Below, piece after piece: positions 3,319 through 30,491 of a DNA stretch of 32,000 nt. Numbering within the stretch: the stretch's first letter is position 1; each line of letters starts with the position of its first letter. A program made the position numbers and the translations under genes. Under the pieces are notes generated by a model that saw nothing but the letters and a program-made list of their open reading frames with translations, was not told where the DNA came from and made no database searches. The stretch lies in contig NZ_NFJW01000006.1 of NCBI RefSeq assembly GCF_002160065.1, forward strand, positions 1 to 32,000, in the 5' to 3' direction. The stretch comes from Collinsella sp. An2 (GTDB lineage: Bacteria; Actinomycetota; Coriobacteriia; Coriobacteriales; Coriobacteriaceae).

Positions 3319-4545
3319 CTATTCGATGAACATCGCGTCGCCGAACGACAGGAACCGATAGCGTTCGGCGATCGCCTGCTCGTAGGCGTCCATGATCTGG
3401 TCACGCGTCGCCAGAGCGGAGACGAGCATCATGAGCGTCGAGCGGGGCACATGGAAATTCGTGATGAGGGCATCGACGACGTGATAGGTCGAACCCGGCA
3501 TGAGGTAGAGATTCGTGGTGGCGTTCTCGCGCGGAACGATGTCGCCGCGTCCGGTCACCGCTGCGGAGTCCGGCGCCTGCTCGAACCGACGAGCCACGAC
3601 AGCAGGGTCGCTCGCAGGCGCATCGGGGTCCCAGGCGCTCTCGAGCGAACGCACGGCCGTGGTACCAACCGCGATCACGCGATGGCCCGCCGCCTTCGTG
3701 GCGTGCACCGCCTCGACGACGTCGGCGGGCACATGGTAGCGCTCGGTATGCATGACATGCTGGGTGGGATCGTCCTCCTCCACCAGGCGAAACGTGTCGA
3801 TACCGACCTCAAGCTCGACCGTCACGAACCCGATGCCCTTGTCCTCGAGCGAAGCGATGAGCTCGGGCGTGAAATGCAGGCCTGCCGTAGGGGCCGCCGC
3901 GGAGTGCTCCTCCTGCATGGCGTAGACGGTCTGATACTTCTCGGGATCACCCTCGTATTGGGTGATATAGGGAGGCAGCGGCACGTGTCCGGCAGCATGG
4001 ATGGCCTCGTCGAGGGTACGCGGGCGGCCGTCGACCCCCTCGCCGACCGGCTCGAAGCGAACGAGGCGGCCTCCCCTGCTCTCGGGCACAAAGTCGACGA
4101 CGGTACCGGTGAGCACCACCGGCGAGGACGCGGGCGCGTGCAGGCCGCCGGCACGATACTCGATCACGGCACCCGGCTTGAGACGGCGCCCCGGGTTCAC
4201 CAGGCACTCCCACACATGGCCAAGCGCATCGACGTCCTCGCGCCGCTTGAGCAGCAGCGTCTCGGCAACGCCGCCCGTGCCGGCCTTATGACCCACCAGG
4301 CGGGCGGGCATGACACGCGTCTTGTTTGCCACAAGCAGGTCGCCCGGCTCGAGGTAGTCGGCGATGTCATAGAAGTGCCGATGCTCGACGCTGCCGCCAT
4401 GACGAAGCGGCACGGTCTGCGAAGCGGTGGCAAGTGGCTCGTCGTCGCGGTGCAACACAAGCAGGCGACAAGAATCGCGCGGGTCTGCAGGGGCCTGTGC
4501 GATGAGTTCGTCGGGCAGGTCGTAGTCAAAGTCGTCGGTACGCAT
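3319..4545 (-). CDS. queA: S-adenosylmethionine:tRNA ribosyltransferase-isomerase
   Basis: N-terminus MRTDDFDYDLPDELIAQAP, plus HVPLPPYI, APTAGLHFT, VIAVGTTAVRSLES, VVDALITNFHVPRSTLMMLVSA and YRFLSFGDAMFIE all match QueA. I chose the ATG at 4545 (AAGAGG 5 nt upstream) over the ATG at 4560, which has no SD. At 408 aa it is longer than E. coli QueA (~356 aa), mostly because of extra residues after the SLES motif. Confidence 0.9.
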   Translation of the reverse strand: MRTDDFDYDLPDELIAQAPADPRDSCRLLVLHRDDEPLATASQTVPLRHGGSVEHRHFYDIADYLEPGDLLVANKTRVMPARLVGHKAGTGGVAETLLLKRREDVDALGHVWECLVNPGRRLKPGAVIEYRAGGLHAPASSPVVLTGTVVDFVPESRGGRLVRFEPVGEGVDGRPRTLDEAIHAAGHVPLPPYITQYEGDPEKYQTVYAMQEEHSAAAPTAGLHFTPELIASLEDKGIGFVTVELEVGIDTFRLVEEDDPTQHVMHTERYHVPADVVEAVHATKAAGHRVIAVGTTAVRSLESAWDPDAPASDPAVVARRFEQAPDSAAVTGRGDIVPRENATTNLYLMPGSTYHVVDALITNFHVPRSTLMMLVSALATRDQIMDAYEQAIAERYRFLSFGDAMFIE

Positions 4546-9667: not shown

Positions 9668-10417
9668 CTAGACCCCCAGCAGGTCGCAGACCTCGCCGAG
9701 CGACCGGGCGCCCGCATCCTCACGAGGGCGGGCGATCACGATTGCCTGCGCGGCGGCATCGCGACAGGCGGCGACCTTCTCTTCCAGACCCCCGGCGGTG
9801 CCGGACTCCTTGGTCACCAACCATGAGGCACCTATCTGGCGCAGCATCGCCGCGTTGAGTTCTTGGGTAAACGGCCCCTGCATGGCGATGATGTGCGACG
9901 GGGGAAATCCGGCGTCGAGCGCACGCTGCAGCGATGCCACCACGGGCAGAATCCTCACGTACACGCGCTCGATGAGGTCGGGCGTCGCAAAAGCGTCAAT
10001 CGTGTTGGTGCCCGTGGTCAACAGGACGGCTCCCGTCTGTTCCCGCAGCATCGCGGCGGCCTCTTCGGCAGAAGCGACATAGCGGGCCCCGTCCTGTCGG
10101 GCGACGCCGTCCCGGGCAAGACGCACGTAGCTTGCTCCACACGCCGCTGAGGCGGAGCGAATCGTCCTGCTTGCCTCAACGGCAAAGGGATGCGTCGCGT
10201 CGATCACGCAGGCAGTACCCTTAAGCGCCGCGGCCATGCCTGCACAGTCAAGCCGACCGGTATGGACCTCCATGCCGGGAAGGTCGTCCACAAGCTCCCC
10301 GCCGTAGTCGGTCGCCGTAAACACGCGCGCGGCACGGCCATGCGCCGCAAGGCGCTCGCACAGGATGCGGCCCTCCGACGTGCCGGCAAACACCGCAAGC
10401 GGCCCAGCCTCCATCAT
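9668..10417 (-). CDS. cbiJ: Cobalt-precorrin-6A reductase
   Basis: N-terminal VFAGTSEGR, then IDATHPFA and a C-terminal LVTKESG motif typical of CbiJ/CobK. The start forms an ATGA overlap with the cbiC stop. Last gene of the operon. Confidence 0.85.
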   Translation of the reverse strand: MMEAGPLAVFAGTSEGRILCERLAAHGRAARVFTATDYGGELVDDLPGMEVHTGRLDCAGMAAALKGTACVIDATHPFAVEASRTIRSASAACGASYVRLARDGVARQDGARYVASAEEAAAMLREQTGAVLLTTGTNTIDAFATPDLIERVYVRILPVVASLQRALDAGFPPSHIIAMQGPFTQELNAAMLRQIGASWLVTKESGTAGGLEEKVAACRDAAAQAIVIARPREDAGARSLGEVCDLLGV

Positions 10418-11061: not shown

Positions 11062-12584
11062 GCCCCCTCTCTTCGCATGGAGGGCGCGTCGGCGGCGCCT
11101 TCCTCGATGATGTGATAGATGGCCTCCATATCAAGCGATGCGCGAACCGTATCGGCAAGCAGGTCGTATTGATGCTCCCGGTAGGCCTGGGCATCATGGA
11201 CCCGCGGCGCGCTGGACGGCAGACCGCGAGCCGTAAGCAGGGCGTCGACCAGGGTGTCGACCACCGCCGGCTCATCGAAGAGCCCGTGGAGGTACGTGCC
11301 TGCAACGTTTTCGCGTACAGCCCCCATATTCTGCGACGCATCGCCTCGCGCAACCGCAAAGAAGGCGGCCGCAGAGACGGTCGCGCCTGCATGGATCTCG
11401 TAGCCTCGCGCTGCAAGGCCGTTCCAGCACGCAAAGATTCCCTCGCGCGGGCACAGCTCCATCTCGGTTTGGGCGAGGCGTTTATCCGCAGCAAAGGAAG
11501 TGCGCACAGGCAGCAGCCCAAGGCCGTCGGCCGACCCTCCGCCTTCGGTGCCCAAGGGGTCCTCGATGTGTTCTCCGAGCATCTGATAGCCTCCGCAGAT
11601 CCCTAGAATCGGCGTACCCGCCGCCGCAAGTACCTCGATGCATGTTGCTAGACCCGCCTCCTTGAGCCATGCGAGGTCGTCGAGGGTCTGCTTGGTTCCC
11701 GGCAGGACCACCAGGTCGGGACGACCCAGGTCCTCGGCGCGGGCGACATAGCGCACGCCGGCTGCAGGATTGCGCTCGAGGGGCGAGAAATCGGTGAAGT
11801 TGGACAGGTGCGGCAGGCGCACCACCGCGATGTCGATCACCCGCGCACAAGACCGCGCGTCGAGCCGTGATGACAGGCTGTCCTCGTCATCCAGGTCAAG
11901 ATCCACATACGGGACGACACCCAGCACAGGTGCGCCGCAGAGCTCCTCGAGCGGCGCGAGCCCGGGACGCAGGATGGACACGTCGCCGCGAAACTTGTTG
12001 ATCACCAACCCGCGCACACGCTCCCGGTCGGCGGCATCGAGCAGCTGGACGGTGCCCACCAACTGGGCAAAGACCCCGCCTGGATCGATGTCTCCCACCA
12101 GCAGCACCGGCGCGTCGATGAGGCGGGCAAGCCCCATGTTCACGATGTCGTCGCGCTGCAGATTGATCTCGGCAGGCGATCCCGCGCCCTCCACCAGCAC
12201 GACGTCGTAGGAGGCGGCAAGGTCGCGATACGCCGCCATGACCTCAGGCACGAGATCGCGTCGGTGCGTAAAGTAGTCGCGCGCACTCATGGAGCCGCGG
12301 GCGCGTCCGCCAACGATCACCTGGCTGCCACGCTCCCCCTCCGGCTTGAGCAGGATCGGGTTCATGCGAACGTCGGGAGCGATGCCGGCGGCTTCGGCCT
12401 GCATGGCCTGGGCGCGCCCCATCTCGCCCCCGTCGGCAGCAACAAAGCTGTTGAGCGCCATGTTCTGGCTCTTGAACGGCGCCACGCGAAGCCCGTCCTG
12501 AACAAGGACCCGGGCGAGCCCCGCCACAAGCAGGCTCTTTCCCGCATTCGACATGGTGCCCTGAATCATCAGCGATCGCGCCAT
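11058..12584 (-). CDS. cbiP: Cobyric acid synthase
   Basis: N-terminal MIQGTMSNAGKSLLVAGL P-loop-like segment, GAGSPAEINL, and a C-terminal glutamine amidotransferase region (GICGGYQMLG...YEIHAG) match CbiP/CobQ. AGGAGG upstream of the ATG at 12584. Confidence 0.92.
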   Translation of the reverse strand: MARSLMIQGTMSNAGKSLLVAGLARVLVQDGLRVAPFKSQNMALNSFVAADGGEMGRAQAMQAEAAGIAPDVRMNPILLKPEGERGSQVIVGGRARGSMSARDYFTHRRDLVPEVMAAYRDLAASYDVVLVEGAGSPAEINLQRDDIVNMGLARLIDAPVLLVGDIDPGGVFAQLVGTVQLLDAADRERVRGLVINKFRGDVSILRPGLAPLEELCGAPVLGVVPYVDLDLDDEDSLSSRLDARSCARVIDIAVVRLPHLSNFTDFSPLERNPAAGVRYVARAEDLGRPDLVVLPGTKQTLDDLAWLKEAGLATCIEVLAAAGTPILGICGGYQMLGEHIEDPLGTEGGGSADGLGLLPVRTSFAADKRLAQTEMELCPREGIFACWNGLAARGYEIHAGATVSAAAFFAVARGDASQNMGAVRENVAGTYLHGLFDEPAVVDTLVDALLTARGLPSSAPRVHDAQAYREHQYDLLADTVRASLDMEAIYHIIEEGAADAPSMRREGA

Positions 12585-13693
12585 GACCTCGAGTCCTCCT
12601 CCGTGCCGCCGGCCTTAAGCGCACCTGTGCACGCCTGGAGCAACCGATCGTTCTCCTCAGGCGTCCGTACGGCAACCCGCACGTAGCCCTTAGGCAGGCC
12701 TTCGTAGTTTCCACAATCCCGAACGATGACCCCGTGCGCAGCAACACGCTCGGCAAACCCTTCGAGCGGCGACCGAACAAGTAGGTAGTTGGCCTCGCCG
12801 GGAACGACTGCGCAACCAAGGGCGCCAAGACCCGCCACAAGCCGTGCTCGCTCGGCGGCGATAAGCTCCCGGGTTCGTTCGACAAACGCCGTGTCGGCAA
12901 GCGCGGCCACACCCGCCGCCTGAGCCGGCGTGGACACGCTCCATGGAGGACCCGCCGCATAGACGCGCTCGGCAAGGTCGGCGTCCCCGCATACCAAGTA
13001 TCCCAAGCGAAGACCGGCCATCCCATAGAGCTTGGTGAACGCGCGCAGCACCACGACGCTCTCCCCTGCAGCCGCCTGCTGCACAAGCGTACGCTCCGCA
13101 CCGTCGGCGACAAATCCCAAGAAGCACTCGTCGACCGCCAGCAGCGCACCCGCGGCCCGGCAGCGCTCGACGATGCGACCCATAAGCTCCACAGGGACCG
13201 TCCGTCCAGTCGGGTTGTTGGGGTTGCACAGGAAGACCAGGTCGATGTCATCGTCGATGGCCGCCAAGAAGCCCTCGTCGAGGACGAACCCGCAGGAGAC
13301 ATCGAGCGCATGGCTACAGACGCGCGCACCATAGAACCGTGCGGCTGCACCATATTCCGAAAAGGTGGGGGCCGTCAGCAGCATCGCCCGGGGACGCACC
13401 GTCGCCACGAGGCGCCAGATGAGATCTGCCGCGCCGTTGCCGCAAAGCACCGCCTCGGACGCGATGTCATGGTGCCGGGCAATGGCCTCCACAAGCTCCC
13501 GACAGTGTGGATCGGGATAGCGATCACACGCGGACAGGGCGCGCGCCGCGGCCGCTCGTACCGCCTCGGGCATGCCCAGCGGGTTCGTGTTGGCAGAGAA
13601 GTCGATGACGTTGGATCCCCAGCGCTCGCGCGCCGTCCAGACGTCGCCGCCGTGCCCATAGGAACGGTGGGAACGGGGTTTCCTATCTTCCAT
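12569..13693 (-). CDS. cobD: L-threonine-O-3-phosphate decarboxylase (class I/II aminotransferase fold)
   Basis: N-terminal HGGDVW, IDFSANTNPLG, NPNNPTG and FTKLYGMAGLRLGY (PLP lysine context) are typical of CobD. GGAGGGGAG lies 10 nt upstream of the ATG at 13693. Confidence 0.85.
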   Translation of the reverse strand: MEDRKPRSHRSYGHGGDVWTARERWGSNVIDFSANTNPLGMPEAVRAAAARALSACDRYPDPHCRELVEAIARHHDIASEAVLCGNGAADLIWRLVATVRPRAMLLTAPTFSEYGAAARFYGARVCSHALDVSCGFVLDEGFLAAIDDDIDLVFLCNPNNPTGRTVPVELMGRIVERCRAAGALLAVDECFLGFVADGAERTLVQQAAAGESVVVLRAFTKLYGMAGLRLGYLVCGDADLAERVYAAGPPWSVSTPAQAAGVAALADTAFVERTRELIAAERARLVAGLGALGCAVVPGEANYLLVRSPLEGFAERVAAHGVIVRDCGNYEGLPKGYVRVAVRTPEENDRLLQACTGALKAGGTEEDSRSWRDR

Positions 13694-13743
13694 ATCCCGT
13701 CATCTCCCCTCCATCTCGTCCTGACACCATGCTGCCCCCAGAA

Positions 13744-13864
13744 TTGTGGCAATTTACACGCCCACCTTCTGTTTTGTGGCAATATACACGCTCAAGGGCG
13801 TAAAACAGGCACCTGAGCGTGTAGATTGCCACACGATAGCGAGCAAGCGTGTGGATTGCCACAA
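13744..13864. repeat. Four copies of a 17-18 bp motif (TGTGGCAAT-NN-ACACGC): two direct, then two inverted
   Basis: Copies: 13744-13761 TTGTGGCAATTTACACGC; 13774-13791 TTGTGGCAATATACACGC; 13817-13833 GCGTGTAGATTGCCACA; 13847-13864 GCGTGTGGATTGCCACAA. Same-orientation copies are 30 bp apart. The spacers between copies are not conserved. The copies differ only at the NN dinucleotide. Confidence 0.85.
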
Positions 13865-13910
13865 TTCCGCCCCTTGCGAATACATCGCACGCCAAAGGGA
13901 CGGCCGCCCG

Positions 13911-14882
13911 TTAACCCGACCAGACTACCACGCTGACGATGCGCACGGCTGCGAACACCAGGAACGCCAGCGCGGCAGCGGCATACATGAGTCGGTTAGC
14001 ACGGCGGATATCCTCGGGCTCTATGGGACGAAGGTCGTCTCCGATAGTGGGTTTTTCCACCATATGCCCAAAATACGACGCCGGCCCTGCCAAACGCACG
14101 GAGAGGGCACCCGCCATGGCGGCTTCGGTCTGTGCGGCGTTGGGACTTGCATGACGCCTGCGGTCGCGCCGCCAGATGCGCCAGGCACCCGCACCGGACA
14201 GCCCCGTCAGCGGGGCGGCCGCAACCAGGCAGAGCGCCGCGATGCGTGACGGCACGAAGTTCACGACGTCGTCGAGGTGCGCGGAGGCACGACCGAAGTC
14301 GATGTACCGCTCGTTTTTGTACCCCACCATGCTGTCGAGTGTGTTGACGGCCTTATACGCGGCAGCAAGGGGCGCGCCACCCACCATCATGTACAGCAGC
14401 GGTGCGACGACGCCGTCGCTCGCGTTCTCGGCCACCGTCTCGACGGCGGCGCGCACGACACCGTCCTCGTCAAGCGCCTCGGTATCGCGCCCGACGATAT
14501 ACGACACCGCTGTGCGCGCGGCAGCGAGACCTTGGTCGCGCAGAGCAGCCAACACGGCCATGCTCTGGCGCCGAAGCTCACATGCGGCGAGCAGCTGGTA
14601 GCACACCCAGGACTCAGCGATGAGACAAAGCGTCGGATGGATCGCACCGAGCGCGGCAAGGACGGCCCAGCAGATTGCAAACGAGCCAAGCGGCAATGCG
14701 ACGGCAAGCACGCGGCCGGCGGCGCGGCGTCCTGCCGCGGTGTCGGGGAACCGCGAGCGCAGACGAGGCTCCGCCCACCCGATCGCCCGTCCCATGGCGA
14801 CCACCGGATGCGGAAGCCAGCGCGGATCGCCCAGGGCGAGGTCGAGCACGGCGCCGATCGCCACGGCGGCAAGCGTCATCAT
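13911..14882 (-). CDS. cbiB: Adenosylcobinamide-phosphate synthase
   Basis: Polytopic membrane protein with LDLALGDPRWLPHPV near the N-terminus and later DTEALD, ENASDGVVAPL and VNTLDSMVGYKN motifs typical of CbiB/CobD. Start trimmed to the ATG at 14882, which overlaps the cobC stop (ATGA). Confidence 0.9.
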   Translation of the reverse strand: MMTLAAVAIGAVLDLALGDPRWLPHPVVAMGRAIGWAEPRLRSRFPDTAAGRRAAGRVLAVALPLGSFAICWAVLAALGAIHPTLCLIAESWVCYQLLAACELRRQSMAVLAALRDQGLAAARTAVSYIVGRDTEALDEDGVVRAAVETVAENASDGVVAPLLYMMVGGAPLAAAYKAVNTLDSMVGYKNERYIDFGRASAHLDDVVNFVPSRIAALCLVAAAPLTGLSGAGAWRIWRRDRRRHASPNAAQTEAAMAGALSVRLAGPASYFGHMVEKPTIGDDLRPIEPEDIRRANRLMYAAAALAFLVFAAVRIVSVVVWSG

Positions 14883-15487
14883 GCGCAGCCCCTCCCGCCG
14901 CTGCAACCCTCCTGCGAAGGAGGACAGATCACCTCGAGCCGACGCCCGTCCCCCTCGAGCTCCCAGCAGCCACCCGGCGGCGTCTCGATGGAGAAGTACT
15001 CCATCGCCGGCACGGCAAGCGACGAGATGATCGCGCGGGCGGTGCCCGCATGCGCCACGATAACGACTTGCTCAGCGCCCGCACGCCCAAGGTCGTCGAC
15101 GAGGTCAGAAAAGGCCCCGACGCAGCGGCGCGTGAAGCCCGAACGGTCCTCGCCGCCGGGACAGACGCCCCAGCAGCCACCCTCGACCCACTGGCGATAC
15201 GCGCCATCGTCGGCGAGGTCTGCAAACGCCTTGCCTTCAAAGGAGCCGAAATCCATCTCGCGCAGGCCTGGCACGGCTATCTGGCGCGCGTGGGGAAACA
15301 GAATCTGTGCGGTCTGGGCACAGCGCAGCATGCCACTGGTGTAGACCGTGCTCACGCACTCATCGACAGGCAGCATCGACAGGGCGGCGCGACCGGCCTC
15401 GGACAAGGCGACGTCGGTCCCGGCGCCCTCATAGCGTCGGGCGACGGTTCCCTCCGTGGCACCGTGCCGATAGAGCAAGATTCTCAC
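14879..15487 (-). CDS. cobC: Histidine phosphatase family protein, probable alpha-ribazole phosphatase
   Basis: RILLYRHGATEG (RHG motif) and AHAGT later. It lies inside the nucleotide-loop assembly block next to cobS/cobU/cobT. GTG start at 15487 with AAGGGGG upstream, and a GTGA overlap with the preceding stop. The function is assigned from context. Confidence 0.7.
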   Translation of the reverse strand: MRILLYRHGATEGTVARRYEGAGTDVALSEAGRAALSMLPVDECVSTVYTSGMLRCAQTAQILFPHARQIAVPGLREMDFGSFEGKAFADLADDGAYRQWVEGGCWGVCPGGEDRSGFTRRCVGAFSDLVDDLGRAGAEQVVIVAHAGTARAIISSLAVPAMEYFSIETPPGGCWELEGDGRRLEVICPPSQEGCSGGRGCA

Positions 15488-15831
15488 AAGACCCCCTTGA
15501 TTACCTGCGGCAAGCCGCACACCATGCGCACTACGGCCTCGGCGTGCTCGGCAAGCAGGCATCCCAGGCGGCCGGCGTCCTCGCGCCAGGCGCGCTCACC
15601 GGCATCGAGCGGCACCACGCCGCAGCCCACCTCGTCCATGAGCACGGCCCGCTTACCACTCAGCACCCGCGCCGCCTCCTCGGGCGAGAGCGTATGCACA
15701 AGCTGTTCGGCGTGCTCGACGGCAGGGCGCTCGTCCACGCATCCGTTCGACAAGTCTTCCGGACCAAGCCCAAGCCTCGTGCAGGCAAAAGCACGTTTGC
15801 CAGACCCCATCCCGCCCACGATCAAGATCAT
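15484..15831 (-). CDS. Short CobU-like P-loop protein (115 aa)
   Basis: The ATG at 15831 forms an ATGA overlap with the cobS stop. It has the P-loop MILIVGGMGSGKRAFA and a CobU C-terminal block (LMDEVGCGVVP...REDAGRLGCLLAEHAEAVVRMVCGLPQVIKG). It lacks the central YxAT...RIxxH segment. The 207 codons upstream in ORF 15484..16452 are out-of-frame overlap with cobS and were rejected. Confidence 0.65.
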   Translation of the reverse strand: MILIVGGMGSGKRAFACTRLGLGPEDLSNGCVDERPAVEHAEQLVHTLSPEEAARVLSGKRAVLMDEVGCGVVPLDAGERAWREDAGRLGCLLAEHAEAVVRMVCGLPQVIKGVL

Positions 15832-16604
15832 GAGATGCCTCCCAACAGCACGATCACGGCAACCATCGCGAGCTCGTCCCATTGCACGAACCATCCGGCA
15901 AGGTCCCCGGTCACACCGCCGAAGAGGCCAAATGCCATGTGCCGATACCATGCGAATCCCACAAGGCCCACCGCCACGGCGACGGCGCCGACCCAACCGC
16001 CGACACCGATGAGCAGAACCGCAAAGACGACCGCCTGCACGGTGAGCGCGCGACGGACCGACGCCGCGGCATCCGCTCCCCCGGCAAGCGAGGCGGCCAT
16101 GCCCTCGGGGCGGGCCTTTGGCCAGCAAGCGACCGCCACACCCGAAAGCGCACGGGAGAATGCGAAGAGTGGCACGAGAGCGACCGCTTGAAGCACCCCG
16201 GGCCTCCAGCTTGCAGCGAGCGAGAAAAAGAGCAGCAGGTAGCATCCGACCGCCATGACGCCGAAGGCGCCCGCGCGCGGATCCTTCATGATCTCCAGCC
16301 GGTGCGTGCGGTCCGCATAGCTGGCGAGCGCATCGGCCGTGTCGCAGAGCCCGTCCAGGTGAATGCCTCCGTTCACCACCAGGGGCATCGCGGTGAGCAC
16401 GGCCCCTTCGACCAGGGGCGGCACGCCCAGCGCGCCGGCGAGCATCGTCCACGCCGCCATGGTGAGCCCTTGAACCACGCCCACGGCCGGAAAACCTGCC
16501 AGCGCACTGCCCCCGTCCCAGTCGACACGCTCAAGAAGGGCGCGGGGCACCGGAATGCGCGAGAACACCGAAAACGCCGCAGCGACGGCATCGATCAGCT
16601 TCAT
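15828..16604 (-). CDS. cobS: Adenosylcobinamide-GDP ribazoletransferase (cobalamin synthase)
   Basis: Membrane protein with FSRIPVP, GGIHLDGLCDTADA, MKDPRAGAFG and GVTGDLAG motifs typical of CobS. The ATG at 16604 forms an ATGA overlap with the cobU stop. Confidence 0.9.
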   Translation of the reverse strand: MKLIDAVAAAFSVFSRIPVPRALLERVDWDGGSALAGFPAVGVVQGLTMAAWTMLAGALGVPPLVEGAVLTAMPLVVNGGIHLDGLCDTADALASYADRTHRLEIMKDPRAGAFGVMAVGCYLLLFFSLAASWRPGVLQAVALVPLFAFSRALSGVAVACWPKARPEGMAASLAGGADAAASVRRALTVQAVVFAVLLIGVGGWVGAVAVAVGLVGFAWYRHMAFGLFGGVTGDLAGWFVQWDELAMVAVIVLLGGIS

Positions 16605-17170
16605 CGTCCGCGCTCCCTCCACATCTCCTCGTTTCCACGCATCCAGACCGGCAGGCCCACGACGACCTCGACCACCGCGTCGGCCCGCCGTGCCAGCCGA
16701 GCGTTCACCCGCGCGATCGCGCGCTGGTAGCTGACGGTCTCGGGCGCATAGGACACGCCGTCCGAGGCGATGCTGTTCGTAACCACCACGCAGTCCTGTG
16801 CGGCCGCGGCGACGACGTCGATGCCATCGAGAACGGCCTCGACGACGCGGTCTTCCGCAAGCGTGCCTCCGCACGCGACTCCCGCCGAATCCGGTGACCA
16901 AAGCTCGTTTGCCAGCAGGTTGCCCACGTCCTCGACGAGCACGACGTCCGTGGAAGGAACCACCGCCCGCGCGAGGTCGCGCGAGCATTCGAGCAGACGG
17001 AATCCCTTGCCTCGCCTGAGCTCGCGATGCCGTGCGATCCGACGAGCAGCCTCCGTCCCGGCGGCTTCCATGGTCGCCACGTAGAGAACCGTCCCTCCGC
17101 GCGCCGTGCACAGCTCCTCCGCAAAGGCACTCTTACCGCTTGCGGCGCCGCCGATGACCAAGGCCTGCAC
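16601..17170 (-). CDS. cobU: Adenosylcobinamide kinase / adenosylcobinamide-phosphate guanylyltransferase
   Basis: P-loop VIGGAASGKSAFAE, LYVATMEAAG...RIARHRELR (the region holding the guanylyl-histidine in characterised CobU) and a C-terminal RVNARLARRADAVVEVVVGLP block. GTG start at 17170, 1 nt after the cobT stop. Confidence 0.85.
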   Translation of the reverse strand: MQALVIGGAASGKSAFAEELCTARGGTVLYVATMEAAGTEAARRIARHRELRRGKGFRLLECSRDLARAVVPSTDVVLVEDVGNLLANELWSPDSAGVACGGTLAEDRVVEAVLDGIDVVAAAAQDCVVVTNSIASDGVSYAPETVSYQRAIARVNARLARRADAVVEVVVGLPVWMRGNEEMWRERGR

Positions 17171-24526: not shown

Positions 24527-25351
24527 TTACGCCTCGCAGCCCGGACTTGCAGACGAAGGTTCGCGCGGCTCGCCGTCGACGTGGGCGTCGGCACCTGCGT
24601 CGTGCGCCGGGCGGAACAGCGTCGCAAACCCGGGGTCGTACAGGCGGCTGCGCTCGTAGGATGCGTCGAGCACACGCCCCACCACGACGAGGGCGGTCAG
24701 GCGGATGCCGTGCTCCTTGCCCGTCTTCGCAAGCGTTCCCACCTGGCAGCGCAGGACGACCTCGTCGGGCCAGGTCGCCTTGTAGACGATCGCCGCCGGT
24801 TCCCGCTCGCTGCGGCCCGCGGCGAGCAGCTCTTCCTGCAGCCGTTCAAGATGCCCCGCGCTCAAAAAGATCACGAGCGTAGAACCATGGGCGGCCAAGC
24901 TCCGCATGTCTTCCCCTGCAGGCATGGGGGTACGCCCTGCCAGGCGCGTGAGCATGACCGTCTGGCTGATTCCCGGCAGGGTCAACTCCTGCTCCAATGC
25001 GGCCGCCGCGCCGCAGAAGCTCGACACGCCGGGGACCACGTCGAAGGGGATACCGCGCTCGCGCAGAGCGTCCATCTGTTCCTGGATCGCGCCGTAGACG
25101 CTTGGGTCGCCCGTGTGCAGGCGCACCACCTCAAGGCCGTCCCGCTCGGCGCGCTCCATGGCATCGAGAACCTCTTCGAGCGTCATGCGGGCGCTGTCGA
25201 GGATCTCGCAGTCCTCGCGACAGACCTTCAGCAGCTCGGGATTCACCAGGCTGCCCGCCCATATCACCATGTCGGCACGGCGCAGCAGCGCGTCCCCGCG
25301 CAACGTGATGAGGTCGGGCGCGCCGGGGCCGGCACCCACGAAATGCACCAT
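24527..25351 (-). CDS. cbiF: Cobalt-precorrin-4 C11-methyltransferase
   Basis: VHFVGAGPGAPDLITLRG, LHTGDPSVYGAI and PGVSSFCGAAA match CbiF/CobM. I chose the ATG at 25351 (GAAGGGAG 8 nt upstream). In-frame alternatives at 25372 and 25408 lack an SD. First gene of the 17-gene operon. Confidence 0.9.
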   Translation of the reverse strand: MVHFVGAGPGAPDLITLRGDALLRRADMVIWAGSLVNPELLKVCREDCEILDSARMTLEEVLDAMERAERDGLEVVRLHTGDPSVYGAIQEQMDALRERGIPFDVVPGVSSFCGAAAALEQELTLPGISQTVMLTRLAGRTPMPAGEDMRSLAAHGSTLVIFLSAGHLERLQEELLAAGRSEREPAAIVYKATWPDEVVLRCQVGTLAKTGKEHGIRLTALVVVGRVLDASYERSRLYDPGFATLFRPAHDAGADAHVDGEPREPSSASPGCEA

Positions 25352-25519
25352 AGGGGTCGCTCCCTTCGTCATGGCGGCGCCCGTCCGGCCGGGCGCGTGT
25401 GGGAGCATTGTAGCGCACGGCCACCCATGTCCGCCGCCGACGGACCTGCTGCGGATTCCTTGCGCACATTTAGCCTGCAGCCCCGCTCCGTGAGACGCGC
25501 GGGGCGCGACGCGTTAAGA

Positions 25520-25700
25520 TGGGGCGGTGCCGCTTCTCAGCGGGGCGGCCGACATATGAACCAGGAGACGGCCGGCGCTCGTACCGCCGGGTCATCAAAG
25601 GGAATCAGGTGCGAATCCTGAGCAAGGGCCATTACTGTGTGCGCGGCCTCACCGCGCGAGCCAGACTGCTTTGCCGTCCCCTCTCGGCCCTCGAGGCCGT
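25520..25700 (+). promoter_or_regulatory. Cobalamin (B12) riboswitch-like aptamer
   Basis: The core GGGAATCAGGTGCGAATCCTGAGC (25600-25623) matches the conserved GGGAA-N3-GGTG-N-AA-TCC-N3-GC element. ACTGT follows at 25634-25638, then a short hairpin GTGCGCGG/CCGCGCG, then a B12-box-like GAGCCAGACTGC (25658-25669). A hairpin CCGGCG/CGCCGG precedes the core. The CCCGC element is divergent (GGGCC). The boundaries are approximate. Confidence 0.6.
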
Positions 25701-25783
25701 GGCGCCGACCTTCCGTGAACCCCGGAGGGACCGCACATTCAAGAGCCGCGTCGGCATGGAGGCCGGCGGGCGCTTCGTCCTGT

Positions 25784-25813
25784 GCGCTCTCCGACCGGTC
25801 GAAGAGCGTTTTT
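25784..25813 (+). terminator. Intrinsic terminator, probable riboswitch expression platform
   Basis: CGCTCTCCGA/TCGAAGAGCG stem with one mismatch, followed by TTTTT (25809-25813). It lies ~110 nt after the aptamer core and 76 nt before the ATG at 25889. Confidence 0.55.
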
Positions 25814-25888
25814 CGTATGCGCGAGACGTCCCGTGAGCCCGTGCGACCGCACGGGCGGACCCCATACGCACAAAGAAAGGACGAAGCC

Positions 25889-26812
25889 ATGGCCAAAACC
25901 AGCATGACTCGCAGAAACCTGGTGAAAGGAGCGACGGTGGCAGGCGTCGGAGCCGCCGCCGCGATGCTCGCCGGCTGCGCCAACGACGCCGCACAGACGG
26001 CCGCGCAGGCCGCCGTCAAGCCCGTCATCCTCGTAACGAGCTTTGGCACGAGCTATGCCTCGAGCCGTCACAGCACGATCGGGGCGATCGAGTCGGCGAT
26101 CCGCGAACGCTTCCAGCCCACGTATGACGTGCGACGCGCGTTCACCTCTGACACCATCATCGACATCCTCAAAGAGCGCGACGGCATCTCCATCGACAAC
26201 GTCGACGAGGCGATCTCCCGCTGCATCGACGACGGGGTGCGCACCCTGGTGGTCCAGCCCACGCATCTCATGGAGGGCTACGAGTACACCGACCTCGCCG
26301 ACGCGCTCGAGAAGGTGCGCGACAGCTTTGACGACGTGGTGCTCGGACGGCCGCTTCTCGACACGCAGGAGGACCTCGACGCCGTCGCCGACGCGCTGAC
26401 CGAGGAACTCGCCGACTACGACGACGGATCGTGCGCGCTCGTCCTCATGGGGCACGGCACCGAATCCGACGCGAACGGTGTCTACGCCGCCCTGCAGAAG
26501 ACCTTCGACGCCCGCGGGCAGCACCAGTTCTTCGTGGGCACGGTTGAGGCCGAACCCACCTGCGACGACGTGATCCGCGCGGTGACCGAGGCCGGCTATA
26601 CGCGCGCCGCGCTCTCCCCGCTCATGGTCGTCGCCGGCGACCATGCAACCAACGACATGGCTGACCGAAACGACCCCGAGTCCTGGGTCTCGCGCTTCGA
26701 GGCGGCTGGCATCGAGACCACCTGCATCCTCGCCGGCCTGGGTCAGTACGCCGGCATCGATTCAATCTACGTCGACCACGTCTCGGCTGCCATCGACAGC
26801 CTGAAAGGATAG
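25889..26812 (+). CDS. cbiK: Sirohydrochlorin cobaltochelatase CbiK homologue with Tat-type lipoprotein signal peptide
   Basis: The mature part aligns along its length with CbiK (ILVTSFGTSY, RRAFTS, VQPTHLMEGYEY, LMGHGT, PLMVVAGDHATNDM). The N-terminus MAKTSMTRRNLVKGATVAGVGAAAAMLAGC has a twin-arginine motif (TRRNLVK), a hydrophobic core and a lipobox (LAGC). An alternative in-frame ATG lies at 25964. Confidence 0.88.
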   Translation: MAKTSMTRRNLVKGATVAGVGAAAAMLAGCANDAAQTAAQAAVKPVILVTSFGTSYASSRHSTIGAIESAIRERFQPTYDVRRAFTSDTIIDILKERDGISIDNVDEAISRCIDDGVRTLVVQPTHLMEGYEYTDLADALEKVRDSFDDVVLGRPLLDTQEDLDAVADALTEELADYDDGSCALVLMGHGTESDANGVYAALQKTFDARGQHQFFVGTVEAEPTCDDVIRAVTEAGYTRAALSPLMVVAGDHATNDMADRNDPESWVSRFEAAGIETTCILAGLGQYAGIDSIYVDHVSAAIDSLKG

Positions 26813-26818
26813 GTATTC

Positions 26819-27352
26819 ATGAAGCTCACCTACGGCGCGTGCGCGCTCACCCTTATCGTCGCTCTTTCCGGCTGCAGCGCTCAGCCAGCAGCGACAAACG
26901 GTTCCGCGCCGGCGGCCACAGGCTCCGCTGTCGTATCCACAGGCTCCACGGACGCGTCCTCCAGCGAAAAGACGACGCCCATCACGGCCGACATGCTCGT
27001 GCCGGGGTCCTATGAGATCGACGTCGACTCGAGCTCCAGCATGTTCCGCATCGTCGCAGCGACGCTCGACGTGACGAACGACGGCATGACCTGCACCATG
27101 ACGCTTTCGGGCACCGGCTACGAGAAGCTCTATATGGGCACGGGCGAGCAGGCCGCCGCAGCCCCGGATGAGGACTGCTCGTACTTCGTCGAGGGCGCCG
27201 ACGGCTCCTACTCCTACACCGTCGCGGTTCCCGCCCTGGACAGCGACGTCGATTGCGCGGCGTTCAGCATCCGCAAGCAGAAGTGGTACGACCGCGTGCT
27301 CGTGTTCCGCTCCGACAGCCTGCCGGCAGACGCCTTCGCAGCCAACGCCTAA
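26819..27352 (+). CDS. Small lipoprotein, unknown function (domain shared with the next gene)
   Basis: MKLTYGACALTLIVALSGC is a signal peptide with a lipobox. An S/T/A-rich linker is followed by a ~110-aa domain. AAGGA lies 9 nt upstream. The gene starts 6 nt after the cbiK stop. Confidence 0.7.
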   Translation: MKLTYGACALTLIVALSGCSAQPAATNGSAPAATGSAVVSTGSTDASSSEKTTPITADMLVPGSYEIDVDSSSSMFRIVAATLDVTNDGMTCTMTLSGTGYEKLYMGTGEQAAAAPDEDCSYFVEGADGSYSYTVAVPALDSDVDCAAFSIRKQKWYDRVLVFRSDSLPADAFAANA

Positions 27353-27371
27353 TCGAAAAACGAGGATCCCC

Positions 27372-28910
27372 ATGATGCGCGCCTCCACGACTAGAGCCCC
27401 CTTTGCACGCCTCGCATGCGTCGCGCTGCTGGTGCTCGCCTTGCTGACAGCCGTCGGATGCACCTCGGCGCCTACAGCCGACGGTACGCCCGCCGATGGC
27501 TCCTACCAGGTATCGCTTGAGCTTGAGGGCGGCTCCGGCAGGGCGACGGTCGAAAGCCCTGCCGAGGCGCGTGTGGAGGATGGGCGCATCACGCTTGAAG
27601 TCGTGTGGTCGAGCTCGAACTATGACCTCATGGTCGTAGACGGCGTCGAATACGCGCCCACCTCGACCGAGGACGGCTCGACCTTCGAGATCGCCGTGCC
27701 CGCGCTCGAAGGCAACGTGGCGGTCGAGGCGCGGACCACCGCCATGGGCGACCCGCACCTCATCTCCTACACCCTGCACCTTGGCGATGCTGGCGACGAA
27801 AACCAAGGTGCCTCTACGGCAAGCGATGGGGACGCGATCCTGGTCGCCGACTACCACAATCCCGATCTGGGCTGTGGATGGGCGCCTGTCTCGTCGCTTG
27901 ACCTCTCACACGCGAAGAACTTCACAGTCGATGACTACGAGGGCGGCTATCGGCTCATCTGCATTGCCGATGGCAGCAGGTACCTGCTCGTTCCCGAGGG
28001 CAAGCAGGCTCCGGAGGGCCTTGCCTCGGACATCCGCGTCGTCGCGCAGCCGGCAGACCAGGTCTATCTGGTGTCGTCGGCCGTGGCGTGTCTTGTGGAT
28101 AAGATCGATGCGCTCGACCATGTGGCCGCGACCTCGGTAACCCCTCAGACCTGCTCGGTCGAGCGCCTGAAGGACGCCATCGAAGACGGGTCCATCCCCT
28201 ATGCGGGCCGCTACAACACCCCCGACTACGAGGTCATCACCGAAGCCGGCTGCACGCTCGCCGTCGAGAACACCATGATCTACCACACGCCCGAGGTTCG
28301 CGAAAAGCTTGAAGACCTGGGAGTCACCGTCCTCACCGAGCTCTCGAGCCGCGAGACCGAGGTCCTGGGACGGCTGGAGTGGGTCAAGCTATTCGGCGTG
28401 CTCTTCGGACGCGAAAGCGAGGCGACGAGCTTCTTCAACGAGGCTTGCGAGCGCATCGAGCAGGTCTCGGCGGACGAGCCGAGTGGCAAGACGGTGGCGT
28501 TTTTCTACATCAACTCCAACGGAGCGGCCGTGACCCGGCGCTCGAACGACTACGTATCGCAGATGATCGAGCTCGCCGGCGGCACGTACCTCTTCTCGGA
28601 CCTCCCCGGCGATGACGGGACCTCGTCCTCCACCGTCACGGTCGAGATGGAACAGTTCTATGCCATGGCCCGCGATGCCGACATCATCATCTACAACGGC
28701 ACGACCGACGACAGCATTGACGCCATCGACGACCTCGTGGCCAAAAACCCGCTGCTCGCACAGTTCCGCGCCGTACAGAACGGCCAGGTGTGGATCTGCA
28801 ACCGCAACATGTACCAGCAGATGGCAGACTCGGCCGACATCATCGAAGAGCTTCACGCCATCGTCTCCGGCAACGCGGGGCAGCTTGCCTACTTCCGCAA
28901 GATCTCGTAG
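27372..28910 (+). CDS. Lipoprotein: N-terminal unknown domain fused to a FecB/BtuF-type (cluster A, PF01497-like) ABC substrate-binding domain
   Basis: Trimmed to the ATG at 27372 (GAGGA upstream). The signal/lipobox is ALLTAVGC. Residues ~40-135 resemble the preceding lipoprotein. The C-terminal ~330 aa have the periplasmic-binding-protein pattern (RVVAQPADQVYLVSS..., LEDLGVTVLTELSSRETEVLGRLEWVKLFGVLFGRESEA). Confidence 0.8.
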   Translation: MMRASTTRAPFARLACVALLVLALLTAVGCTSAPTADGTPADGSYQVSLELEGGSGRATVESPAEARVEDGRITLEVVWSSSNYDLMVVDGVEYAPTSTEDGSTFEIAVPALEGNVAVEARTTAMGDPHLISYTLHLGDAGDENQGASTASDGDAILVADYHNPDLGCGWAPVSSLDLSHAKNFTVDDYEGGYRLICIADGSRYLLVPEGKQAPEGLASDIRVVAQPADQVYLVSSAVACLVDKIDALDHVAATSVTPQTCSVERLKDAIEDGSIPYAGRYNTPDYEVITEAGCTLAVENTMIYHTPEVREKLEDLGVTVLTELSSRETEVLGRLEWVKLFGVLFGRESEATSFFNEACERIEQVSADEPSGKTVAFFYINSNGAAVTRRSNDYVSQMIELAGGTYLFSDLPGDDGTSSSTVTVEMEQFYAMARDADIIIYNGTTDDSIDAIDDLVAKNPLLAQFRAVQNGQVWICNRNMYQQMADSADIIEELHAIVSGNAGQLAYFRKIS

Positions 28911-30413: not shown

Positions 30414-30491
30414 GGCGCCCTTCTGATTCCCCGCGGGCGTGGTCCTCGGCTTCGCCTGCGGGAAACGCCCGCGGGGAATCAGAAGGGCGCC
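30414..30491. terminator. Perfect 26-bp inverted repeat with 26-nt loop between convergent genes
   Basis: GGCGCCCTTCTGATTCCCCGCGGGCG (30414-30439) is the exact reverse complement of 30466-30491. It sits between the stop at 30389 (+) and the stop at 30506 (-). No U-tract. Each arm contains the self-complementary CCCGCGGG. Confidence 0.6.

Follow-up and report, generated by a model that had tools for sequence, protein, structure and literature searches.

A lineage-specific two-tier foldback in the cbiB-cobD spacer of a Collinsella cobalamin operon, a candidate intercistronic mRNA hairpin

The REP/BIME sequences of enterobacteria are intercistronic palindromes that occur in inverted pairs and whose mRNA stem-loops protect the upstream mRNA, as in the malE-malF case. 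Paired repeats of a different kind are found at the ends of Mu, Tn7 and IS21-type elements, where each end carries two direct recognition sequences of about 17 bp, the two ends are mutually inverted and the motif starts with TGT. The Correia elements (CREE/NEMIS) of Neisseria are co-transcribed with their neighbours and form a long hairpin that is bound by RNase III and either cut or protected, with a change in neighbour expression (PMC2649163). The element described here, located in the cobalamin operon of Collinsella sp. An2, belongs to the known kind of small palindromic intergenic or intercistronic elements and to no described family. By analogy of form and position, its closest described counterpart appears to be the Correia element: like CREE/NEMIS and similar co-transcribed MITEs, it is a foldback in the size range of about 100-150 bp with terminal inverted repeats and lies between genes (PMC2649163). 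It differs from CREE in having no sequence similarity to it, in being seen here as one copy rather than as many per genome, and in consisting of two tiers built from one 17-mer, whereas CREE has one inverted-repeat pair. Moreover, neither a TA duplication nor an IHF site was identified in the element, and its cleavage by RNase III is a prediction from duplex length.

The window, the whole stretch of 32,000 nucleotides that was analysed, contains a cobalamin operon of 17 genes on the minus strand, which runs from a tetrapyrrole methylase gene at 25408 to cbiJ at 9668. The initial annotation had described an operon with overlapping junctions and one 217-bp gap between cbiB and cobD, and this was borne out for the junctions from CbiD to CbiJ, those with gene calls: adjacent genes overlap or are separated by 1 nt, with the sole exception of a 217-nt spacer (13694..13910, minus strand), the only real gap of the operon. 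On its upstream side, cbiB, encoding adenosylcobinamide-phosphate synthase (13911..14906, minus strand), ends a 13-gene block; the gene call on record comprises 323 aa, and its start therefore lies inside the 13911-14906 open reading frame. On its downstream side, cobD, encoding L-threonine-O-3-phosphate decarboxylase (12569..13693, minus strand), heads the cobD-cbiP-cbiC-cbiJ block, and the closest named match of its product is from Collinsella tanakaei, with 57% identity. The spacer is indeed poorer in GC than its flanks, at 0.51-0.58 versus 0.62-0.70. Elsewhere in the operon, two CobU-domain genes (189 aa and 115 aa) lie on either side of cobS (approximately 15484-17170 on the minus strand of the window; L120 6524-8210), and a split or duplicated CobU arrangement around cobS is also kept in the relatives L127, L129 and L130.

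Within the spacer, the motif TGTGGCAAT-NN-ACACGC is present in four exact copies in the order → → ← ←. Exact copies of GTGGCAATNNACACGC are located at 13746 and 13776 on the plus strand and at 13817 and 13847 on the minus strand, and a search with the full 17-mer TGTGGCAATNNACACGC returned the same four sites, with starts at 13745 and 13775 (plus) and at 13817 and 13847 (minus). When up to two mismatches were allowed, the window contained 5 motif matches against 0.21 expected, a number that none of 100 shuffles reached. Copies in the same orientation are exactly 30 bp apart, the motif centres follow one another at 30, 42 and 30 bp, and the 13-nt stretches that separate same-orientation copies are equal in length and unrelated in sequence. 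Variation is confined to positions 10-11, which read TT, AT, CT and CC, the specified bases being identical across the four copies (15/15). The two direct and two inverted copies, the 30-bp spacing, the unrelated inter-copy stretches and the two variable positions had all been reported beforehand and were reproduced; since the operon is on the minus strand, the copies then termed direct (13744, 13774) correspond to 3' arms in the mRNA. The 17-mer itself contains only a weak internal dyad (GTG...CAC) and is not dyad-symmetric. A near-match with two mismatches, TGTGGCAAACAAGACGC, lies inside a coding region at 4317-4333 on the minus strand and does not exceed chance expectation, which is 0.78 per window when up to three mismatches are allowed.

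The four motifs are the four arms of one 127-bp two-tier foldback, not independent sites. The whole element (13741..13867, unstranded) has its symmetry axis near 13804 and consists of 59-nt arms that lie 9 nt apart. Read in the mRNA sense, that is, along the minus strand, it opens with the 5' arm of an outer helix (13847..13867), made up of M1 (TGTGGCAATCCACACGC, 13863-13847) and GAAT, and continues with the first internal-loop strand (13834..13846, TTGCTCGCTATCG), which is unrelated to the strand opposite, and with the 5' arm of an inner helix (13812..13833), in which M2 (TGTGGCAATCTACACGC, 13833-13817) is followed by a 5-nt extension. The apical loop region, as given by the folds, occupies 13797..13811. 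Beyond it lie the 3' arm of the inner helix (13775..13796) with M3, which reads TGTGGCAATATACACGC on the plus strand at 13775-13791, the second internal-loop strand (13762..13774, AAACAGAAGGTGG) and the 3' arm of the outer helix (13741..13761) with M4, which reads TGTGGCAATTTACACGC on the plus strand at 13745-13761. The order of parts in the mRNA sense is GAAT-M1, 13 nt, M2-TCAGG, a 15-nt apical loop, CCTTGA-M3', 13 nt and M4'-ATTC. In the window, 19 of the 21 positions of the outer helix are paired, the internal loop is 13x13, and the inner helix is paired at 21 of 22 positions if a G·U within the 5-pair extension is included. The inner motif pair is complementary at 16 of 17 positions, while the mRNA sense of the outer pair shows two C·A mismatches that turn into G·U in the antisense, both in agreement with the pairing first proposed (about 16 of 17 pairs inside; two C-A, or antisense G-U, outside).

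The element is bounded by perfect terminal inverted repeats of 13 nt, GAATTGTGGCAAT/ATTGCCACAATTC. No coding capacity was evident, as its open frames overlap genuine opposite-strand genes and the spacer is free of gene calls. AATT stands on both sides of GTGG...CCAC and would yield the empty site GAATTC, the predicted sequence of cbiB joined to cobD without the element being GGCGGAATTCTGGGG. This AATT flank is self-complementary and therefore indistinguishable from an extension of the inverted repeat. GCCCC is likewise found on both sides of the element, at unequal offsets. Just past the cbiB stop, a smaller hairpin (approximately 13869-13905, minus strand) consists of CCGUCCCU...AGGGGCGG enclosing GCGA/UCGC; its pairing is not kept in the sister strain L121, in which one C·A mismatch is introduced.

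Folding of the spacer gave -99.9 kcal/mol for the sense strand (z -5.9, equalled by none of 200 shuffles) and -92.8 kcal/mol for the antisense strand (z -8.0, no shuffle as good), the outer helix being fully paired in the latter with two G·U. Both strands give the same two-tier hairpin, which persists with longer flanks and is also formed by the L121 spacer, where the inner helix is a perfect 22 bp. Substrates of RNase III measure about two turns, or some 20 bp and more, and the inner helix pairs at 21 of 22 positions in the window and at 22 of 22 in L121, the outer helix at 19 of 21. The folds pair M1 with M4 and M2 with M3, and no unit with itself, which argues against membership in REP/BIME. 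The element resembles these sequences in being an intercistronic arrangement of inverted palindromic repeats, but the REP unit is an imperfect palindrome of 20-40 nt, whereas the 17-mer here is not self-complementary and has its partner 25 or 85 nt away. REP sequences are further characterized by many copies and a RAYT transposase, neither of which was apparent in the sequence searched here. Sequestration of the ribosome-binding site was considered on account of a UCCCUUU/GGAGGGG closing helix in the fold of the spacer alone and was rejected, as this helix is lost with longer flanks. A 15-codon upstream open reading frame overlapping the cobD start was dismissed as well, being absent in a further strain, L131, through an indel and the loss of the ATG.

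No sigma-70-like promoter was found on either strand in 13400-14200, and the single terminator-like site in this region lies inside cbiB, none being found at the element. The hairpin is followed by CUGGGGGCAG in the sense and by CGCCCCUUGC in the antisense direction, and lacks a U-tract; with no terminator-like site at the element either, an intrinsic (Rho-independent) terminator was rejected. The -10-like strings TATATT and TAAATT overlap the variable NN positions and change between strains. No Rfam 15 family reached its gathering threshold within the window, and the sole match in a permissive search reflects hairpin shape only, a plant miRNA-precursor model having scored 33.5 bits where its threshold is 197. 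The minus strand of 24800-27400, where the operon begins, gave no match to a cobalamin riboswitch. On the plus strand, a sub-threshold match to the cobalamin riboswitch aptamer (25552-25692; 24 bits against a gathering score of 31.5, E 0.0019) lies upstream of the plus-strand cbiK and periplasmic-binding-protein genes, which diverge from the 17-gene operon. A perfect 27-nt inverted repeat with a 24-nt loop is located at 30414-30491 between the convergent genes for His_Phos_1 (plus) and ABC1-kinase (minus); unrelated in sequence to the cbiB-cobD element, it probably forms a terminator-like hairpin that acts in both directions. The partial matches of the motif to the consensus sequences of a sigma-54 promoter, a DnaA box and a Rex operator are implausible as assignments, given four copies in two orientations, and an integron attC site was rejected because the boxes within one attC arm are inverted while here they are direct, and because no integrase is present.

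Gene order is shared with the next relatives, whose CobD is about 60% identical. Between cbiB and cobD, L127 has 2 nt, L129 has 43 nt and L130 has a GC-rich gap of about 130 nt, and in L122 (CobD 61% identity) two genes on the opposite strand, encoding Dus and an HD-domain protein, lie exactly at the junction (L122 1317-3184). Neither the motif nor an inverted repeat was found at the junction in any of these four. Since it is absent from the junctions of syntenic relatives, the element is a lineage-specific acquisition at the seam of two cobalamin modules. The insertion in L122 in turn identifies the junction as an evolutionary seam and indicates that cobD-cbiP-cbiC-cbiJ can be a separate transcription unit. 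Comparison of this junction, which the initial annotation had suggested, therefore assigns the element to the strains of one species and not to relatives with about 60% CobD identity; the feature is clearly non-random and specific to one species lineage.

Three strains, all of one species, were available for comparison: the window, L121 (CobD 97% identical) and L132, the latter two both having a 217-nt spacer with four copies. Window and L121 differ by substitutions at 8 of 127 positions of the element (about 6.3%) and 14 of 217 positions of the spacer, and at third codon positions by 35 of 375 in cobD and 10 of 116 in cbiB (about 9%). Six of the eight substitutions in the element fall in the inner helix, and every one of them keeps or improves pairing: U-A is replaced by C-G twice, at 13831/13777 and 13823/13785, with both sides changed, a C·U mismatch at 13824/13784 becomes C-G through a change at 13784, and a G·U at 13813 becomes A-U. 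The other two are located at unpaired positions, 13765 in the internal loop and 13754 in an already mismatched outer NN. L132 has a U·G at 13823/13785. Like the other polymorphic wobble of the inner helix, this pair forms on the operon-sense strand only. The outer helix of L121 and L132 carries a mismatch on both strands at one of its two NN positions. When eight substitutions were placed at random in simulation, the probability of at least two compensated doubles was about 0.0014 and that of no pair being broken about 0.012, while a shuffle test of covariation (106/500) has no power with three sequences. As divergence is near-neutral and pairing is kept, the pairing is constrained while most of the sequence drifts, and the primary sequence of the element appears to be weakly constrained. 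The internal segments have the same orientation in 3 of 3 strains. The contig of L131 starts exactly at AATTC, directly after the last motif, a position that fits an assembly branch point between filled and empty sites, the alternative being low coverage.

The search for further copies covered several collections. Some 40 kb of the source genome, made up of the window and its 7.7-kb right extension L133, contained no second copy at up to three mismatches, and a covariance model built from the three strains matched only the cbiB-cobD locus in 105 kb of window and relatives. A double-motif scan of viral contigs in either orientation returned nothing, blastn of the element against plasmids gave no match, and a double-motif scan of JGI metagenome contigs yielded no further element; these viral, plasmid and metagenome collections apparently do not include the source organism, and the window's own locus was not matched in them. 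The sole matches in the metagenome contigs were to an unrelated 44-bp tandem repeat in low-GC contigs (L124, L125 2551-2654 and L126), which holds an identical 17-mer, TGTGGCAATGTACACGC, in a different context and with no inverted copy; this was judged a coincidence. Six-frame translations of the element had no match among 5.8 billion predicted proteins, in a search of low sensitivity. A scan of genome contigs for the single motif (14 specified bases) gave at least 119 isolated chance matches in unrelated phyla, none of them clustered, but a pattern of 14 bases is expected to give thousands of chance matches in such contigs and is uninformative. Among the genes examined in the approximately 40 kb, none encoded a transposase, recombinase or DNA-binding regulator, and a literature search with the motif string returned primers only.

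These data have led us to favour, tentatively, a model in which a foldback inserted into the operon is transcribed together with it and works as a hairpin between cistrons of the mRNA. The foldback would have been acquired only in this species lineage, between the 13-gene block that ends with cbiB and the cobD-cbiP-cbiC-cbiJ block. Because it lies inside the operon, it would be transcribed in the polycistronic mRNA, where it is predicted to form a very stable interrupted hairpin of about 43 pairs. The perfect or near-perfect 22-bp duplex would be a suitable substrate for the double-strand-specific RNase III, and the long hairpin may present a barrier to 3' exonucleases; with either an RNase III cut or an exonuclease barrier, the mRNA segments before and after the hairpin would no longer be coupled in amount. 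The presence of the same 17-mer in both tiers, with unrelated loop strands, implies either sequence-specific recognition or origin from a repeat unit, and would be best explained by a small palindromic unit nested in the loop centre of a second copy. Such a self-nesting unit would measure about 59 nt, with an inner copy of 17+25+17 and an outer copy that, after removal of the inner one, reads 17+26+17, the insertion having occurred at 13|13. Pairing that is kept between strains points either to a hairpin that matters or to hairpin-dependent mutation by template switching. Replication template switching in quasi-palindromes is known to yield pair-preserving changes without selection (PMC7202029), and the changes observed here could stem from it. 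Further points that count against the hairpin model are that selection for pairing alone leaves the 15 specified bases shared by both helices unexplained, that no second copy of the proposed repeat unit was found in the sequence searched, that the outer helix contains two C·A mismatches in the mRNA sense, and that the argument draws on three strains. Two of the three explanations offered by the initial annotation meet in this model, and both have gained support short of proof: nested RNA hairpins through the two-tier fold (z -5.9 sense, -8.0 antisense) and the pairing kept by compensatory changes, and an inserted repeat element through its absence from the same junction in syntenic relatives.

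It is also conceivable, if somewhat unlikely, that the element is a neutral passenger: a mobile element of MITE-like or foldback type, bearing two recognition repeats at each end, that landed in the operon seam and has no function. The identity of the 17-mers would then reflect the transposase sites of a parent family, and pairing would be kept by template-switch correction, an established source of mutation in quasi-palindromes (PMC7202029), although the U·G state of L132 is not a template-switch product. The element has the terminal inverted repeats, the small size (127 bp, against an upper limit of about 300 bp) and the lack of coding capacity by which MITEs are recognized; it is missing from the same junction in all syntenic relatives, and its divergence is near-neutral. 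Its conserved 17-mers at fixed spacing, with unrelated spacers and the order → → ← ←, are arranged as in multi-site transposon ends, and it shares with those of Mu, Tn7 and IS21 the paired direct 17-mers per end, the inverted ends and the TGT start. Unlike these, it came with no transposase among the nearby genes examined, no other copy and no unambiguous target-site duplication, and its inverted repeat runs 4 nt past the TGT...ACA tips (GAAT/ATTC). The AATT flanks, with their would-be empty site GAATTC, favour an insertion, as does the start of the L131 contig at AATTC, which is expected of a filled/empty branch point, but the self-complementary AATT could instead be an extension of the inverted repeat. 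A mobile origin is further, if weakly, opposed by the searches, which returned no second copy from the roughly 40 kb of this genome or the 105 kb of window and relatives (up to three mismatches, covariance model), no copy from the viral, plasmid and JGI metagenome collections, and no spurious open reading frame translation among the 5.8 billion proteins.

An operator array is unlikely. The initial annotation had proposed that a dimeric regulator acts on an internal promoter, and in this version each 17-mer would bind a sequence-specific DNA-binding protein, with four sites on one helical face serving an internal cobD-cbiP-cbiC-cbiJ promoter or a roadblock. The 15 of 15 specified bases shared by the four copies, the two variable positions and the equal-length unrelated spacers are in its favour, and the identical 17-mers still call for recognition or a repeat origin. 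The spacer is less GC-rich than its flanks, the separate transcription unit of the cobD module in L122 makes an internal promoter at the seam plausible, and the lack of a detectable riboswitch on the minus strand of 24800-27400 makes another regulator conceivable. The proposal is weakened, however, by the lack of promoter-like hexamers in 13400-14200, by the position of TATATT and TAAATT on the variable NN, where they differ between strains, by the lack of a regulator gene or regulator domain among the genes examined in about 40 kb, and by the restriction of the motif to this locus in the sequence searched, so that no regulon is visible. Each copy in the window does show the TGTG...CAC with GTG-N8-CAC spacing of Crp/FNR (GlxR) operators, TGTGA-N6-TCACA, as had been pointed out, but its interpretation as a Crp-type dyad did not hold: the motif is asymmetric, with GGCAAT on one side only, it matches 7 of 10 consensus positions, and it has no promoter context. 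In L121 and L132, T3 changes to C in M2 jointly with A to G in M3, a pair-preserving change that turns GTG into GCG in both inner copies (GCG-N8-CAC). A GTG-N8-CAC broken by a paired change is hard to fit with four equivalent Crp-type operators and easy to fit with a helix. A role for the other strand or for DNA structure, whether as a plus-strand antisense small RNA, a recombinase or invertase site pair, or a cruciform-dependent signal, is very improbable. The plus strand has the better z-score (-8.0) and a fully paired outer helix with two G·U, and the inverted-repeat pair is nested, but no plus-strand promoter or terminator was found in 13400-14200, one outer NN is mismatched on both strands in L121 and L132, the inner wobbles are confined to the sense strand, the same internal orientation in three strains gives no sign of inversion, and no recombinase was found among the nearby genes examined.

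Sequence-specific recognition of the 17-mer would have wider consequences, and we consider it doubtful in either of its forms. The 17-mer could be bound, as DNA or as a folded hairpin, by a dedicated trans-acting factor that gates the late cobalamin module cobD-cbiP-cbiC-cbiJ in an operon where no upstream riboswitch was detected, or the element could be the first member of an undescribed self-nesting foldback mobile family in Coriobacteriia with two recognition sites per end.

As a mere passenger insertion, the element would be ordinary. If it is functional, it would represent a recently acquired foldback that divides a long biosynthetic operon, in terms of expression, at a natural evolutionary seam. 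It would likewise be one of the few small repeat elements documented in gut Coriobacteriia, and it may provide a handle on the regulation of the cobalamin pathway in an operon whose 5' end gave no riboswitch match.
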